Shown here piece after piece: positions 25,227-33,264 of a stretch of 64,000 nt of DNA. How positions within the stretch are numbered: the first letter of the stretch is position 1; every line of letters starts with the position of its first letter. Under the pieces are notes generated by a model. That model saw only the letters and a program-made list of their open reading frames with translations, had not been told where the DNA came from and made no database searches. The position numbers and the translations under genes were made by a program. The stretch comes from Nitrospiraceae bacterium (GTDB lineage Bacteria > Nitrospirota > Nitrospiria > Nitrospirales > Nitrospiraceae). The DNA lies in the NCBI GenBank assembly GCA_050246315.1, contig JBFWWG010000002.1:96001-160000 (forward strand). The letters run 5' to 3'.

Positions 25227-25673
25227 CTATTCGCAGCGGCAGTTGGCTTTGTAGTCCGTGCAGATCGGTCCGAATGATCGTTCGCAGTCGCAACTGCACT
25301 TCGGCGTTTGTCCGGCGGGGCAGGTGATTTTGCAAGTCTGTTTGATGCCCATCCCGCAGGACACGATTTCACAGCCGTTGGAACCTTCGGCCATGAGCAG
25401 GGGCGGTTCCGCCGCGCAGACCTTCTCTCCGATCGTTTGTTGTCCCGTCTCATCCATCAACGGCAGCGGGGAAGACGGTCCTTCGTTCGCGGCGGATATG
25501 CGGCTGTCGCGAACCTGATCTTCATGATGGATCTCGGTTGATGAGGTACCGGTCTCAACCTGCCCTTCGGTCGAGGATGCCCATACCGGAAAAAGAAGCA
25601 GTTGGACGGGCGTGAGCAGGAAGAAAGCTAGAAAGGGACGAATGAGCAGGCGGCGCACCTTGCTATGGCTCAT
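25227..25673 (-). CDS. Secreted protein with a 10-Cys C-terminal domain
   Basis: Signal peptide ending VWA, a low-complexity linker, and 10 Cys in the last 48 aa. Confidence 0.7.
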   Translation of the reverse strand: MSHSKVRRLLIRPFLAFFLLTPVQLLLFPVWASSTEGQVETGTSSTEIHHEDQVRDSRISAANEGPSSPLPLMDETGQQTIGEKVCAAEPPLLMAEGSNGCEIVSCGMGIKQTCKITCPAGQTPKCSCDCERSFGPICTDYKANCRCE

Positions 25674-25740
25674 GAGGAACCCGTGACGGTGAGTAGCGGG
25701 CCCCAGGATAGGTACAGTTCGACACGAAATCAAGCCTCGT

Positions 25741-26133
25741 TCAACAAGGAATATCAAGGGCGGGATCGCAAAAAAGCGGGCCGATTACCGGAGGACGCAT
25801 ATATTTTGAGGCAGGATCCTGCGCGCCATTGGGCGAAGTCACGGGAGGCCCGCCCGGCATGCCTGGCAGACCCCGTCCGACCGTACCAAACGACTTACGG
25901 TCGCTGGAACTCCCGATGGTACCCACCGTGGGAGTGGGGGTCGGTTGCACACCTGTCCCGCTGGGAGTAATGCCGCCGGCGCCGGTGACAACCGGTTGCA
26001 AAGCCGGTTGGAGACTCGGTGCCGGTAGGGCCGGTGTTTGAGAAGGAGCGGGAGAAACTTGAGCGCCGCAGGGAATTGCAACCATGAGCAGGCTGATCAT
26101 GGTGAGTATGCGCACCCAGGAAGGACGACTCAT
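25741..26133 (-). CDS. Secreted Pro/Gly/Thr-rich protein
   Basis: GAGAGG RBS, signal peptide, disordered body, C-terminal CDPALDIPC. Confidence 0.65.
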   Translation of the reverse strand: MSRPSWVRILTMISLLMVAIPCGAQVSPAPSQTPALPAPSLQPALQPVVTGAGGITPSGTGVQPTPTPTVGTIGSSSDRKSFGTVGRGLPGMPGGPPVTSPNGAQDPASKYMRPPVIGPLFCDPALDIPC

Positions 26134-26195
26134 GCTTCCTCTCGGTTGCACTTTCCCATTGTTCGACAATGGGAAAGTGCCAATCCGGCAGCCGA

Positions 26196-26567
26196 CTATG
26201 TGACTCCGAGCGTTGAATCTGAGACCGCGCCCCGCGAGGCGCCGGTGAATGGCTTCTCAATACGCAACTGAGGAGAGGGCCAGACTCGATGTCGCGTAGC
26301 AATGGTGCCCAGAGCCACCATGCCGACCGAACAACCGGTCATGCCGACCAATGGAAGGCGCGAGGGTCGGATCGTCAGCGGCGACTCACGGTTCACTCTC
26401 TGCCGGTGAGCCGGGAGATCTTGCTTCGGGTCGTCCGCGCCCACCGATTCAATCTCGGTACGATCCAGCGTCATAATGGGTTGAGGGATCGGACGGTCAG
26501 GATGGCAGGCGGTGAGAATGGCACAACCCATGGCCAGAAAGGCGACGTTGAGGATCGGGGCCTTCAT
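26196..26567 (-). CDS. Putative small lipoprotein
   Basis: AAGGAG RBS and lipobox LTAC. Confidence 0.5.
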   Translation of the reverse strand: MKAPILNVAFLAMGCAILTACHPDRPIPQPIMTLDRTEIESVGADDPKQDLPAHRQRVNRESPLTIRPSRLPLVGMTGCSVGMVALGTIATRHRVWPSPQLRIEKPFTGASRGAVSDSTLGVT

Positions 26568-26629
26568 AACATCTCCTTATGTTGATCTTAAATGAATCCC
26601 AATGGGTGAGCCATACCCCCAGCGCATCC

Positions 26630-27757
26630 TCAGTTGGCCTGAATGGTGACGAACGGTGACGGAGCCTTCTCGTTGGCTTCGGCCAAGGTCAGCATGACGA
26701 GGAGGAACGAGAACAATCCCTTCGACGCAAGATCACGATTCTCAATCCAATACCATCGGTCGTTGTAGTATATCTTTGCGAAGGCATCGGTCGGCTTCGC
26801 TTCGCCGCTCACGATACGAATCAGCGGCGGAAGACTCTCCACCCCATCGGGCGGAGTGGGAAGATGGGGATACGCGCGCAACTCCCTCTCGTGCTCCGGG
26901 GGAACCTCTACGAAAGTGGCCAGCTCGTACAGGATCTGGAATCCCGAGCGCGTATGCAAGGCGATGACATCATCCCGCCCCGCCGGGACCGGGCCATAGA
27001 CGACCGAAAACTCCGTCTTCTTCGGATCCAAACCGAGGAGGCGTTTTACGGTTTCCCGCTCCTTCTGGATCTCCGGTGGAACCTTTTTGGTCGCAAAAAA
27101 CATCGCCAGACCTTCACCCTGCTTCTCTTTGTCAGGGCTGGCGTGCCATCCGACCGTGCCGGACTCCTGGATCCGCCGAAGGGACCTGACCACCTGGACG
27201 AAGTCCGGATCCTCTAATCGTAATTGCGCCCCGCCTCTGCTGTTGGACAGCCCGTTCACGGACTGCACGGCAGCCATGAACAGCAGATCGATCCGCCACC
27301 CGGCTTCGGCTAACTCGAAGAGTCGGATCGGTGGAATGGGCGTCATCAAGGTCCGAATAAATTGAGAACCGGTCAGGGGAGTGTAGGTGATGGTGGGCCG
27401 ATCCGTGTATTGCCCCTGCACGCCCAGATTGAAGAAATTGCTGATGGACGTGCTTGGTACTCTCTCGAGGTTGGGGTAGACCGTGCCGCCGGCCTGTACC
27501 GTGCTGACCAACGAGTAGCTGCTGACGATCTGTCCGACATCGACAAAAATGGGCGTATCCCCGTATCGCATCTTGACGATATTGAGCAGCGTTTGTTGCT
27601 TCCAGGAATTCGCCATGGCCTGGGTGAAGTCGAACCGATCACGGTCGAGCGTCGCTGCGCCGAAGCTCATGCAGCCCTGGAGGCTCAGAAGGGCTACGGC
27701 CGGAACCAAGACCCGTAACCGATCAGGCCAGCGCATGTGCATGAAGGATCCTCTCAT
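26630..27757 (-). CDS. Uncharacterised lipoprotein (375 aa)
   Basis: GGAGG RBS, lipobox LQGC, and conserved-looking blocks LLNIVKMRY.D.P.F.DV and DRPTITYTPL.G. Confidence 0.8.
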   Translation of the reverse strand: MRGSFMHMRWPDRLRVLVPAVALLSLQGCMSFGAATLDRDRFDFTQAMANSWKQQTLLNIVKMRYGDTPIFVDVGQIVSSYSLVSTVQAGGTVYPNLERVPSTSISNFFNLGVQGQYTDRPTITYTPLTGSQFIRTLMTPIPPIRLFELAEAGWRIDLLFMAAVQSVNGLSNSRGGAQLRLEDPDFVQVVRSLRRIQESGTVGWHASPDKEKQGEGLAMFFATKKVPPEIQKERETVKRLLGLDPKKTEFSVVYGPVPAGRDDVIALHTRSGFQILYELATFVEVPPEHERELRAYPHLPTPPDGVESLPPLIRIVSGEAKPTDAFAKIYYNDRWYWIENRDLASKGLFSFLLVMLTLAEANEKAPSPFVTIQAN

Positions 27758-28962: not shown

Positions 28963-31116
28963 CTACTTCCCTTTGCGCGGAGGACGCCTGGCTCCGCGAG
29001 TCCTGCCGGTCGTGCCGAGGTTTCTGGATGCCGACCCGGCTTGATTGCCTGTCGCTTTGTCGCCGGAGAACAGCGGCAATTGAGCTGCTTTGCCCTTTGA
29101 CTTTGTGGCTTTCTGAGTGTTCTCGTGGACGATCTTTGCAGCCTTCCGGCCGAGTCTCTCCGTCGGCCCGTCCGTCGCGGACTGCCCTTCACCGCAGTCG
29201 GCATCCACAGATGAGGTAGTGGACACTGATGGAGTTGACTCCGCATCGACAGTCGCCTCCTCCACAATCGACACCTCCCCTTCCACCCCCTCCTGCGTTA
29301 CGATGAGGGAATGAGGCAGACCTTCCGGACCGGCGCCGGTCTTGCCGAGAACCTCGTCTGTCTTGGTTCCACCGGTACGCGTGGAGGCAATCTTTTGGAG
29401 TTGAGCCTTGAGTTTCTCCTTGGGCAACTTTCCGCCCTTGAGTCGGTTGCAGGCCTCGACGACTTCCTCGATATATAGCGCGAAGATGTTGCGCCGGCGA
29501 AACTCGCTCTCTGCCCGATCCCGCCGCCGCATGAAGACACCGAGCCGTCGGCCACATTCGCGCAGAGCCAGCGTGATCTCCTTCCGGATCTCGTCGTAAT
29601 CGGCGATCGCCTCTTTGGATTCGCTGGTAAAGGGCACCCAAACTGAGGCCATATGCACAAAGATCACCATCGGTCCGCCCGGAAGCGCCCCGCGAGACTG
29701 AGGAATGCCGTAATGCCGCCAGGTCGTGTCGAGCACCGCCTTGAAGGTGGCGCAGGCCGATTGTTGATAGAGCAACGGCACGCGGTTGGCGTAACGGATG
29801 ACACGTGCCAATTCCGTATCATCATCCAGATGTTCCCCCTCTGCGCGCGGCAGGTCCGCCGACTTCTGAGCCTTGGCCATGTCCTCCGGCCCCCGGCCAT
29901 AGGCCAAGCCGGCTTCGATGATGAAGGGATTGCCCCGGTACACGGCCGGCGGGCGGCTGACCGCCGTATAGAACTCACCTTTGATCTGTTTGTACAGGCC
30001 CGACAAAATCGCCTTTTCGCCGATGGGCGAGAGACAATTGGTCGGTGGAGCCATGATCTTGGTGGTTTGAATCGTTTTGTAGAGTGTCTCTGCAGGATGG
30101 CCATGAATGGACCGCGGCGTGGCATCTGGCGAGACCTTTGCGGTCTTGCAGATCTCCTCGGCGAGGGCGGGCGAGACCCGGCAGAAATCGGCGGCGAGAA
30201 AGCCCGAGACCGAATGGCTCTTGGTATCGTGGAGCATCTTCAGCATCATTCCAAACTCGATGCCGTAGGGATGCGGCTTGATCTCGCGTGGTGAGGGCGG
30301 CAATTCGTGATACGTTCGCGGGTAGGTCTTTGATTCGCCTTCCGGCGTCAGGTACGTGAGTTTCACATGCGGATTGGCGATGATCGTCTGCTCCACATAC
30401 TCATCGACCGAGGCCCGTCCCTTCTGGTACCGGCCCTCGACCTCCAGCGTGACCTGCGTGCCGCGCGGCTGATCCCAGTCGATCTGCTTTTTCTCTAGAA
30501 TCAGCGGCTCGTTTTTCTTGGTATCGATCTGTACCTCGAAATAATGAGCGGCGGACCGGGGGCTGGTGCGCGAAATAATCTTGACCGGCTTGCCGGTTGT
30601 CAACTGCCCGTACATGCCGGCCGCAGAAATGCCGATCCCCTGCTGCCCCCGGCTCATACGGAGGCGATGGAACTTCGAGCCGTAGAGCAGCTTGGCGAAG
30701 ATCTTCGGCACCTGCTCGCGGACAATGCCGGGCCCATTGTCCGCAACCGTGATGCGAAACCGGTTGGCCTGGCTGGCCGGTGGCGTGGTGTCGCCGTTCG
30801 AGGCCACCTCGATCTTCACCAGCACGTCGGGAAGAATGCCCGCTTCCTCGCAGGCGTCCAGTGCATTATCAACAGCCTCCTTCACACAAGTCAGCAAGGC
30901 CTTGCGCGGGTTGTCAAAACCCAACAGGTGCCGATTCTTGGTAAAGAACTCGGAAACGGAAATTTCCCGCTGCCGCGATCCCATCTCCACCGCCGTCACG
31001 GCCTGGGCGGCTCGGCTGGCGCCGGACGCGGACTTCTTGGCAATGGTTTGGACCGTTGGGGATGCGGTTGTTGTCGCGGAGGCGGAGGGTGATGCGGGCG
31101 GTTTGCTCTTGGCCAT
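28963..31116 (-). CDS. top6B: DNA topoisomerase VI subunit B with long disordered termini
   Basis: SEFF.KN..LLGF, GHKL motifs KEAVDNALDA, DNGPGI and SRGQQGIGIS, then RYANRVPL, W..YG and SKEAIA. Confidence 0.95.
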   Translation of the reverse strand: MAKSKPPASPSASATTTASPTVQTIAKKSASGASRAAQAVTAVEMGSRQREISVSEFFTKNRHLLGFDNPRKALLTCVKEAVDNALDACEEAGILPDVLVKIEVASNGDTTPPASQANRFRITVADNGPGIVREQVPKIFAKLLYGSKFHRLRMSRGQQGIGISAAGMYGQLTTGKPVKIISRTSPRSAAHYFEVQIDTKKNEPLILEKKQIDWDQPRGTQVTLEVEGRYQKGRASVDEYVEQTIIANPHVKLTYLTPEGESKTYPRTYHELPPSPREIKPHPYGIEFGMMLKMLHDTKSHSVSGFLAADFCRVSPALAEEICKTAKVSPDATPRSIHGHPAETLYKTIQTTKIMAPPTNCLSPIGEKAILSGLYKQIKGEFYTAVSRPPAVYRGNPFIIEAGLAYGRGPEDMAKAQKSADLPRAEGEHLDDDTELARVIRYANRVPLLYQQSACATFKAVLDTTWRHYGIPQSRGALPGGPMVIFVHMASVWVPFTSESKEAIADYDEIRKEITLALRECGRRLGVFMRRRDRAESEFRRRNIFALYIEEVVEACNRLKGGKLPKEKLKAQLQKIASTRTGGTKTDEVLGKTGAGPEGLPHSLIVTQEGVEGEVSIVEEATVDAESTPSVSTTSSVDADCGEGQSATDGPTERLGRKAAKIVHENTQKATKSKGKAAQLPLFSGDKATGNQAGSASRNLGTTGRTRGARRPPRKGK

Positions 31117-31441: not shown

Positions 31442-31643
31442 GAGAGTCGTCATACTGGGCAGCCGATCGTGGCCGACGACTCATGCCGATACCTCGCGGT
31501 CTGGTGCGTATGCCTGTCGGTGAGCCGTGCCTTCCTCCTGGTCTGACTCTCTGCCCACTTGTGACATTTTCTTAAACGGCCTAAGATGTTTCCGGACTTA
31601 CATCACCATGCCATTGCTCCCCACTCGCCTAAGGAGGTGCGCT

Positions 31644-31952
31644 ATGCCGACCTACGTCAGTCTCGTGAAGTTCACGCAGCTCGGGCTCCAATCCATGAAG
31701 GATAAGGGCGTCGAGCGGGCCGAGATGGTCAAGAAAAATGCCCAGGCACTCGGGGGCAAACTCCTACAGGCCTACTATTGCCTCGGCGAGTACGATGTGA
31801 TCGCCATTTGGGATTTCCCCGACAACAAGACGGCCATGAAAGCAGCCGTGTTGAATGCCTCACTCGGCCATATCCAAATCAAGACCATGCCGGCCGTCAA
31901 CCGAGACGACTGGAAGAAGCTCTTGCAAGAAACAATCGCCAAGCACAAGTAG
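31644..31952 (+). CDS. GYD domain protein
   Basis: MPTY..L.KFT..G and Y.CLGEYD motifs. AAGGAGG RBS. Confidence 0.88.
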   Translation: MPTYVSLVKFTQLGLQSMKDKGVERAEMVKKNAQALGGKLLQAYYCLGEYDVIAIWDFPDNKTAMKAAVLNASLGHIQIKTMPAVNRDDWKKLLQETIAKHK

Positions 31953-31977
31953 CAGACTGCAAGAGGAGTCGGCCGAG

Positions 31978-32054
31978 GTCGGCGTTCAGCGCGCTTCCGG
32001 GTGAAGAGCGCGGTTCGGGGGCGATCTGTCACGTTCCTCGACTGAAGCCCCGAC
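31978..32054. other. Branched stem-loop between convergent genes (possible terminator or REP-like element)
   Basis: Outer stem GTCGGCGTTCAG/CTGAAGCCCCGAC encloses two hairpins. Confidence 0.3.
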
Positions 32055-32057
32055 GCG

Positions 32058-32234
32058 TCATTTTTTTCTGTACACGTTCAGGCCGACCTTCTCTTGCCGG
32101 TTCGGAATAGTCACATTCCCCTCTGTCGAGGCGATGATGATGGTCTTGCCGGAGGCCGAGGGCCCGAACTCTTTTGACAGGTCCACCTTGATCGTCAGCG
32201 TTGATCCCTCCACATTCATCTCCACATTTTTCAT
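32058..32234 (-). CDS. 58-aa small protein (absent from ORF track)
   Basis: GAGGGAGG RBS. Translates as MKNVEMNVEGSTLTIKVDLSKEFGPSASGKTIIIASTEGNVTIPNRQEKVGLNVYRKK*. Confidence 0.85.
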   Translation of the reverse strand: MKNVEMNVEGSTLTIKVDLSKEFGPSASGKTIIIASTEGNVTIPNRQEKVGLNVYRKK

Positions 32235-32365
32235 GGTATCGCCTCCCTCACCGCCGTTAGCCGCACCACCAGGACTTTCGGTTCATGACATCAGAGATCC
32301 TTCTCAACCCTCTTTATCCATGAGCATCCATCGACACCCAGATTGCATCCTGATTCCCTTTTCTT

Positions 32366-32611
32366 TCAGCTCCACAATTTGAGCCAAACATAGGGCGTCA
32401 GGTAATACGCCACGGCTGACATGAGTACCGCCAGGGCGATTCCGAACAATCCCATGATCCATAAACCGACGAACGGCAGTAGGAAGACGATCAGGATCAT
32501 CGCAATCGCGATGGGCGTGTGGCGTTCATAGAACTCCCTGCGCTGGGCAGCCCTCAGGGAGGTGATGAAGGACAATTCGGAAGCACGCGTCATCCGGTCA
32601 GGAGAATCCAT
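32366..32611 (-). CDS. Small two-TM membrane protein
   Basis: 81-aa ORF with a hydrophobic hairpin. Confidence 0.6.
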   Translation of the reverse strand: MDSPDRMTRASELSFITSLRAAQRREFYERHTPIAIAMILIVFLLPFVGLWIMGLFGIALAVLMSAVAYYLTPYVWLKLWS

Positions 32612-32690
32612 TTCACGGGGTTGAAATTGCAGCCTCGACGCTCAAGCCCTCGCGTACGCAGATCGCGGAACCGTTCCTGAATCGCTCCGG

Positions 32691-33113
32691 CTACAGAGAG
32701 AAGCCCCACGCATGGGCATGGAAGGTCAACGTGCCAGGACCGGCCTTCCGTTGGACGCGAAATACCAATTGTTCGCCGGGCCGAATCGGAATCGGGCCTT
32801 GTATGAGGCCGACATATCGCCCGAGACCGTTCTGATTGAGACCCCCGGATTGTACGATTGGGACGTCGATTCGATCCTCGATAGTGGGCGGGATCGGAGG
32901 ATCACTGGGATTGGGACCTCGCACCACCATGCTGACACACAGATTCTCTTGCGGTGCATCCTCCATGATCATGACGCTGGCCAGTTGAAGCACGAAGGAT
33001 TTCGTCTTGAGATCGATGAGGACGAGCTCCTCCGCAACATTGTTCCCTCCAGTCCCAAGCGAGGCGCTTCGGCGGACAATGTTTTTAGGAATACCGAGAA
33101 ATTGTTCCGGCAT
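32691..33113 (-). CDS. Hypothetical beta-rich protein
   Basis: AAGGAGG RBS before the ATG at 33113. Confidence 0.65.
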   Translation of the reverse strand: MPEQFLGIPKNIVRRSASLGTGGNNVAEELVLIDLKTKSFVLQLASVMIMEDAPQENLCVSMVVRGPNPSDPPIPPTIEDRIDVPIVQSGGLNQNGLGRYVGLIQGPIPIRPGEQLVFRVQRKAGPGTLTFHAHAWGFSL

Positions 33114-33264
33114 GGACACCTCCTTGGTCGTGCAGGATCCGACTCTGACTCATCAAGATATTTCGCAATACATGTGGCGTCGTCGCGGTCGCGACGTGAC
33201 CTCAGCTAGTGATTCCCCATCTCGCGCCGCACAACCTATTGACTCCGTAGACCACCAGAGCATG

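Follow-up and report, generated by a model that had tools for sequence, protein, structure and literature searches.

The window analysed here, a stretch of 64,000 nucleotides from a Nitrospiraceae bacterium (assembly GCA_050246315.1, contig JBFWWG010000002.1, positions 96,001 to 160,000), contains the gene top6B, which encodes subunit B of DNA topoisomerase VI (Topo VI), and the C-terminal tail of this protein carries the pentapeptide QLPLF, a putative binding motif for the bacterial sliding clamp (beta clamp, DnaN). As an observation made on sequences the motif is well supported, and the mechanism built on it is a proposal, namely that Topo VI is tethered through this tail to beta clamps located at the replication forks or behind them, which we consider somewhat probable. 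This reading is supported by an alignment of related tails and by predicted co-folding of the tail with the DnaN of the host. The motif offers a testable mechanism by which the unlinking of sister chromosomes might be coupled to replication in bacteria without topoisomerase IV (Topo IV).

Positions 29068-29082 of the window read gaacagcggcaattg, and the reverse complement, CAA TTG CCG CTG TTC, is in frame with top6B and encodes Q-L-P-L-F. The original prediction had placed this pentapeptide here, in a low-complexity tail described as acidic and then basic, and had singled out KAAQLPLFSGD as its conspicuous hydrophobic island; all three descriptions hold. The acidic linker has 12 Asp or Glu residues and 0 Lys or Arg, the basic tail that follows it has 17 Lys or Arg and 2 Asp or Glu, and F683 is the sole Phe of the tail and, together with L680 and L682, represents three of the seven hydrophobic residues of its basic half. 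Since the match to the NCBIfam model NF003218 spans residues 43-587, about 130 residues of Top6B lie beyond the family model, and some 65 residues separate the QLPLF island from the protein's last conserved module. The columns of the acidic linker have entropies mostly of 2-3.3 bits and the C-terminal end is a conserved P-R-[GK]-K-K. For clamp binding a consensus QL[S/D]LF has been given, in its general form QxxLF, in which positions 1, 4 and 5 are critical (PMC12309361), and QLPLF fits this consensus of clamp clients. Moreover, QLPL also starts QLPLWG, the ImuB motif reported as experimentally validated for clamp binding in mycobacteria (PMC10421592).

A QxxLF motif conserved within otherwise diverged Top6B tails had been proposed as a check of the idea, and such conservation was found. 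Among the 120 clusters of closest homologues, which are 72-100% identical over the Top6B core, Q[LMIT]xL[FY] stands at the same aligned place in 102, at 14-39 residues from the C-terminus. The variants include QMALF (30), QLGLF (12 plus 1), QMPLF (11), QLPLF (10 plus 1), QLALF (9), QMGLF (9), QIALF (5) and QTTLF (4), others being rarer, and the usual context is KGKAAQ[LM]xLF or KGKAAQ..LF[SA][GE]. In the 120-row alignment the column entropies are 0.76 bits for K676, 0.25 for Q679, 0.43 for L682 and 0.65 for F683, whereas most other columns of the tail, the basic residues included, lie at about 2.5-3.5 bits. Counting filled rows, 106 of 110 have Q at the first position of the motif, 103 of 109 have L at the fourth and 99 of 109 have F at the fifth. 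The island and the five C-terminal residues are the sole conserved parts of the tail, and the conserved columns of the motif are its positions 1, 4 and 5, the same ones that are critical in the clamp consensus.

The co-fold of the tail peptide with the host DnaN, which had also been suggested beforehand, passed its controls. Two copies of the canonical DnaN (49-row alignment) were combined with Top6B residues 664-697 (111 rows), and three runs gave values of 0.66, 0.68 and 0.66 for the interface score ipSAE, while the highest-scoring of 3 controls stood at 0.00; of 157 solved complexes 116 attain the mark applied to this score, and of 215 mismatched pairs 2 do. At least 46% of the contacts are common to the runs, the pLDDT of the partner is at least 50, and the whole confident interface on the side of Top6B consists exactly of residues 676-683. 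On the side of DnaN it is formed by residues 175, 177-180, 250-252, 255, 283, 285-286, 288, 326, 328, 352, 354, 368 and 370-374, which we take to be the C-terminus together with the canonical cleft formed between domains II and III. Most of these residues are invariant in the 49 DnaN sequences (T175, G177, H178, R179, L180, P250 and Y252, and further V255, N328, S354, V368, M370, P371 and K373). The model thus supports, as a prediction, the binding of the Top6B tail to DnaN.

Peptides resembling clamp motifs are also found in Top6B proteins of other phyla. Of the 80 loci taken from at least 603 Top6B loci of named species, 75 could be used, 72 of them bacterial and 3 from DPANN archaea, and their N- and C-terminal tails were scanned for Q..[LM]F or Q[LM].[LF].[FL] as a strict pattern. 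The pattern is present in the tails of 19 of the 72 bacterial loci, whereas 1000 shuffles gave 0.28 on average and 3 at most, and it gave 0 matches in the folded cores of the same loci. Of the 72, 32 contain a bare [LM]F, compared with 5.96 +/- 2.15 in shuffles. The loci with clamp-motif-like peptides include ones from Acidobacteriota, Planctomycetota/Phycisphaerae, Myxococcales and Binatia. Examples at the C-terminus are QLSLGL (Binatia) and QMSLGF (a deltaproteobacterial metagenome-assembled genome, MAG), and at the N-terminus QLDLPF, QLELTF, QLSFAF, QLELGF, QLSFSF, QMNFDF and QGTLF in Planctomycetota and QMDLF and QASLF in Acidobacteriota; many C-terminal tails of Planctomycetota have in addition an acidic xxSLF[GED] without the Gln. 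The location of the motif at either end of the protein according to the lineage argues for repeated and selected acquisition. Absence from archaea had been named beforehand as part of the check, and in the 3 DPANN loci, the archaeal ones closest to the bacterial clade, the strict pattern was not found. Similarly, Q..[LMI][FYW] was absent among the 103 tails listed from representatives at 50% identity, a set in which one motif-less protein (P0003) represents the whole Nitrospira clade and which is uninformative on conservation.

According to the mechanism that we propose, the KAAQLPLF island would dock as a beta-clamp-binding motif (CBM) in the peptide cleft of the host DnaN, and the Lys/Arg-rich tail around it may add a non-specific affinity for DNA. 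The A2B2 enzyme would present two tails and the clamp dimer two clefts, and the flexible linker of about 65 residues could let the enzyme act on sister duplexes near the clamps. Docking would in this way gather Topo VI on clamps at the replication forks, or left behind by them, and the clamp-held enzyme would rid newly replicated DNA of positive supercoils, catenanes and precatenanes. In a broader form the proposal would make bacterial Topo VI across several phyla a replisome-associated decatenase, plugged in after its transfer from archaea by means of short clamp-binding motifs that arose de novo, C-terminal in Nitrospiraceae, Binatia and many Planctomycetota and N-terminal in Acidobacteriota and other Planctomycetota. 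This extension is tentative, and we hold it to be a little short of an even chance.

A number of observations weigh against the tethering of Topo VI to the clamp. QLxLF occurs 18 times in 3,655 crude open reading frames (ORFs) of the genome (1.29 million residues), which is about the rate expected by chance in a rough estimate from typical residue frequencies; the match to QLPLF alone therefore proves little, and it is the conservation that carries weight. The co-fold used its own alignments and three chains, while the calibration was made on single-chain pairs with other alignments. Moreover, 54 clamp sequences of the PDB were matched, and because clamp-peptide complexes are among the solved structures, the passing of the co-fold may be memory, that is, merely the recognition of a QLxLF peptide. 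That the tail may be disordered or exposed is suggested by its composition, by the entropy of the flanks of the motif and, weakly, by a poor AlphaFold2 (AF2) model: the full-length model (120-row alignment) has a mean pLDDT of 53.4 and a pTM of 0.36, and residues 652-711, with pLDDT below 50 and no secondary structure called, belong to a model that is poor as a whole.

The distribution of the motif among close relatives points in the same unfavourable direction. It is absent in 18 of the 120 closest clusters, some of which have decayed forms (QMALL, QLAPF, QVALV, QARLL) and many short and very basic tails of the RRRKK type. When the family is represented at genus level, the motif is present in 11 of the 19 complete Top6B genes and absent in 8, a 20th gene (L004) being excluded as it is cut by the end of its contig. 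In complete species loci with Nitrospir* labels the strict form is present in 3 of 10 and missing in 7, three of these with decayed forms (QLAPF, QIALV, QLALL) and four without any form. A tree of the core requires at least 11 changes of the motif state, of which starred branches force at least 6, and the states are no more clustered on it than shuffled labels; this was a quick maximum-likelihood tree of 37 rows, from which L004 and L093 were omitted as truncated and L017, L095 and L097 for having no full ORF with both anchors. The tallies for the relatives include the genome G009, which is flagged as unpublished, and no claim depends on its sequence. In addition, many of the variants have Gly at position 3 (QLGLF, QMGLF), and Gly at this position is reported to make clamp binding weaker in E. 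coli (PMC12309361). Both Top6B and a second gene of the GyrA/ParC family were unfound in three 100%-complete genomes (G016, G025 and G035). As its aligned place and its flank are always the same, we regard the motif as ancestral and repeatedly lost, and from the comparison of these sequences we read it as useful but dispensable in many lineages.

Explanations other than docking on the clamp have to be weighed with these observations. The island could be a short linear motif for another partner and resemble clamp motifs by coincidence; the candidates are Top6A, SMC-ScpAB, SSB, the ATPase gate of Top6B (in autoregulation) or some unknown factor. Such motifs are short and degenerate, and QLxLF is about as frequent in the genome as chance would give; the xxSLF[GED] of Planctomycetota could point to another reader, and in E. 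coli the recruiters are MukBEF and SeqA for Topo IV and SSB for Topo III, and not the clamp (PMC11253446). Nevertheless the conserved positions 1, 4 and 5 are exactly those of clamp motifs, the co-fold with DnaN passes with its controls at 0.00 and uses only residues 676-683, hexapeptides typical of clamp clients (QLSLGL, QMSLGF, QLDLPF, QLELTF) occur in other lineages, and an xxxLF form without Gln is described for the clamp motifs of DnaE3 (PMC12309361). We consider another partner unlikely. No greater probability is given to the tail being mainly a non-specific DNA-binding arm similar to histone H1, with the island as a minor feature for DNA contact or solubility or a weakly constrained remnant, even if R/K-rich tails persist without Q..LF in L007, L015, L017, L018, L020, P0179, P0182, P0183 and others, and the motif was lost repeatedly. 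In this explanation the conserved Q, L and F, their fixed spacing and their recurrence in N-terminal tails of unrelated lineages are left without a reason, and conservation is restricted to the island and the five final residues while the basic residues around them drift (about 2.5-3.5 bits). The roles of DNA-binding arm and of clamp docking are, besides, mutually compatible.

A chance occurrence, or a remnant of a PIP-box-like motif of the archaeal donor, is disfavoured and appears very improbable. A motif of five residues can arise randomly and archaeal PCNA motifs also start with Gln, but QL.LF was found in only 9 of 100,000 composition-preserving shuffles of the 130-residue tail, it is kept in 102 of 120 close homologues, and the negative results in the 3 DPANN loci and in the 103 representative tails listed are contrary to an archaeal remnant. 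Moreover, QLPLFSGD lacks the paired aromatics of a canonical PIP box.

The set of type II topoisomerases in the host bears on the role that a tethered Topo VI could have. The source assembly (4.39 Mb, 100%-complete) has one gene of the GyrA/ParC family and one of the GyrB family, the latter beside dnaA-dnaN; Topo IV was not found in this complete genome, and Topo VI is its only type II topoisomerase besides gyrase. In the Nitrospiraceae (family f1) Topo VI is present in 20 of 36 genomes and a second intact gene of the GyrA/ParC family in 0 of 36. In the sister family f2 (the relatives of families f2-f4 are genomes G037-G060) all 10 genomes have an adjoining pair of parC-like and parE-like genes and in none of the 10 was Topo VI found, so that Topo VI in one family and ParC/ParE in the other look like alternative solutions for a second type II enzyme. 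The strict clamp motif was not found at the termini of the ParC-like and ParE-like proteins of these 10 genomes, and one ParC-like protein has an internal QLALF. Since no Topo VI and no second type IIA enzyme could be found in G016, G025 and G035, a dedicated decatenase is not obligatory in Nitrospiraceae, and Topo VI as the obligatory decatenase of the family was ruled out by these genomes.

Two dnaN genes were found in the source genome. The canonical one (374 aa) belongs to dnaA-dnaN-gyrB, and a paralogue with 39% identity to it lies elsewhere on contig 2. The paralogue (381 aa, with all three clamp Pfam domains, region G000:C2:469419-475332, L162 and L027) is placed 2.6 kb from a 721-aa SNF2/Helicase_C protein with a clamp-motif-like C-terminus (...QLALFAA), and the two may be a mobile or accessory module of replication or repair. 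A second dnaN is also present in G001, a genome of the same genus. An amidophosphoribosyltransferase-like protein (GATase + Pribosyltran; G000:C14:71067-72542, L163) ends in ...QLGLFESS, which is probably due to chance.

Bacterial beta-clamp clients with QL[S/D]LF or QxxLF motifs include Pol II, Pol IV, UmuC, DnaE, Hda and MutS/MutL. Top6B resembles them in that its pentapeptide fits the consensus, lies near the terminus in a low-complexity tail and is predicted to dock on invariant clamp residues. Motifs of this kind are also used by other proteins of the same genome: two ImuB-like proteins with an IMS domain, whose genes are directly upstream of DnaE2-like genes in two imuB-dnaE2-type cassettes, carry QLSLF and QLTLF, each at 39 residues from the C-terminus, and DnaE1 has QTSIF. 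Unlike these clients, the carrier in Top6B is a type IIB topoisomerase and its clamp binding is predicted only. With the archaeal Topo VI of Methanosarcina mazei (2Q2E) and Saccharolobus shibatae (2ZBK) the enzyme of the window shares the gene order B then A, a full-length match to the equivalog model and the invariant residues of the ATP site; it differs in having about 130 extra C-terminal and 42 extra N-terminal residues and in being encoded by a bacterium that has gyrase and in which Topo IV was not found. The Ig-like C-terminal domain described for M. mazei (PMC11302465) is replaced in the window by the charged and apparently disordered tail with the motif. The recruitment of decatenases to replication-linked hubs in E. 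coli, described for Topo IV through MukBEF and SeqA and for Topo III through SSB (PMC11253446), resembles what is proposed here, as a protein-protein tether would concentrate a decatenase on freshly replicated DNA. However, the sliding clamp would here serve as the hub and a short linear motif of the ATPase subunit as the tether; the likeness would be one of functional analogy only.

Bacterial Topo VI and clamp-binding motifs are each already known. The original prediction had named no known description of their connection, and in agreement with this no publication linking a type II topoisomerase to a clamp-binding motif was found in the literature searched on Topo VI and Topo IV, Nitrospira, the sliding clamp, DnaN and decatenation. 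A 2024 survey of Topo VI states that its role in bacteria is yet to be established, and contains 'PCNA' 0 times and 'clamp' once (PMC11302465). The survey also refers to unpublished data on the complementation of an E. coli parE(ts) strain by the Topo VI of M. mazei. If the proposal is true, a type II topoisomerase would join the bacterial sliding-clamp clients, and a transferred enzyme would have been fitted into the network of its host by evolving a motif of five residues on a disordered tail, a domestication that would apparently have happened more than once and at either end of the protein. In the broader form of the proposal the sliding clamp would be a hub for the control of DNA topology, beyond synthesis and repair. 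Moreover, an LF-to-AA change in the motif would be a cheap handle on the in-vivo role of bacterial Topo VI.

The assignment of the two subunits is based on curated models. Top6B matches NF003218 with 668.2 bits (cut-off 274) and TIGR01052 with 513.4 bits (cut-off 380.7), and Pfam finds Topo-VIb_trans (184 bits, 1.6e-54) and HATPase_c. Residues E80, N84, D87, D126, N127, G128 and G130 are invariant in the alignment of 120 close homologues and in a diverse one of 34 rows, and presumably belong to the N-box (E..DN) and the G1-box (DNGxG) of a GHKL/Bergerat ATP-binding site. The closest homologues are labelled Nitrospiraceae or Nitrospira, with 95% identity to a 'Nitrospiraceae bacterium' protein. 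The gene top6A starts 8 bases past the stop of top6B on the same strand, and its product matches TOP6A-Spo11_Toprim (3.9e-60), TP6A_N and Topo_VI_alpha in Pfam and NF003333 in NCBIfam (580 bits, cut-off 465). The features are collected in the table below.

Features of the top6BA locus and of the related cassettes in the source genome (positions in the window unless a genome handle is given)
Feature	Position	Strand	Basis
top6B, DNA topoisomerase VI subunit B, 717 aa	28963..31116 (stop codon included)	-	ORF translation, NCBIfam/Pfam
top6A, topoisomerase VI subunit A (Spo11-like), 368 aa	27848..28954	-	Pfam, NCBIfam
Top6B N-terminal low-complexity extension, residues 1-42	30991..31116	-	outside NCBIfam match
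Top6B folded core, residues 43-587: GHKL ATPase, H2TH region, transducer	29356..30990	-	Pfam/NCBIfam
Post-transducer module, residues 581-614 (TGG.KTDE.LGK.G.GPEGLP.SIIVT.EG.EGE)	29275..29376	-	near-invariant columns
Acidic low-complexity linker, residues 608-653	29158..29295	-	composition
Basic low-complexity tail, residues 654-717	28966..29157	-	composition, alignment
Island K676-A-A-Q679-L-P-L682-F683, putative beta-clamp-binding motif and flank	29068..29091	-	column entropy, co-fold
QLPLF pentapeptide, residues 679-683	29068..29082	-	in-frame translation
imuB-dnaE2-type cassettes (L160, L161, L165-L169)	G000:C2:368701-372750 and G000:C4:273078-277315		

No clamp-like motif was found in the N-terminal extension of the window's Top6B (residues 1-42). 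In the module of residues 581-614, T581, G582, G583, T586, D587, L590, G591 and K592, and further G596, P597, G599, L600, S603, T607, G610, E612 and G613, are invariant or nearly so in the 120 sequences. This module is covered only in part by the curated Top6B model, whose match stops at residue 587, and is echoed in the Top6B of Planctomycetota by a '...G(D/E)N..I(I/V)V' strand.

The genes flanking top6BA (25227-27757 and 31527-33119) encode a GYD-domain protein (31527-31952, + strand), and there are four further ORFs without a Pfam match, one of which is a 375-aa protein with a start resembling a signal peptide (26630-27757, - strand). A replication context was not found among these neighbours by the Pfam search in the window.

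Upstream of the motif many relatives carry a further hydrophobic island, (Q)xx[DE]LL[GDE], with some copies reading QxxLL. It aligns with residues 637-643 (window positions about 29188-29208; D in 58%, L in 65% and L in 58% of the 120 rows) and is absent from the Top6B of the window itself. In addition, proteins 75-81% identical to the Nitrospira Top6B occur in six MAGs (L085, L086, L088, L089, L092 and L095) labelled Rokuibacteriota, Methylomirabilota, Binatia, Betaproteobacteria/Burkholderiales and 'delta proteobacterium'. Those of them included in the core tree, from which L095 was omitted, are placed inside or adjoining the Nitrospiraceae clade, which reflects either a recent transfer between phyla or mis-binning.

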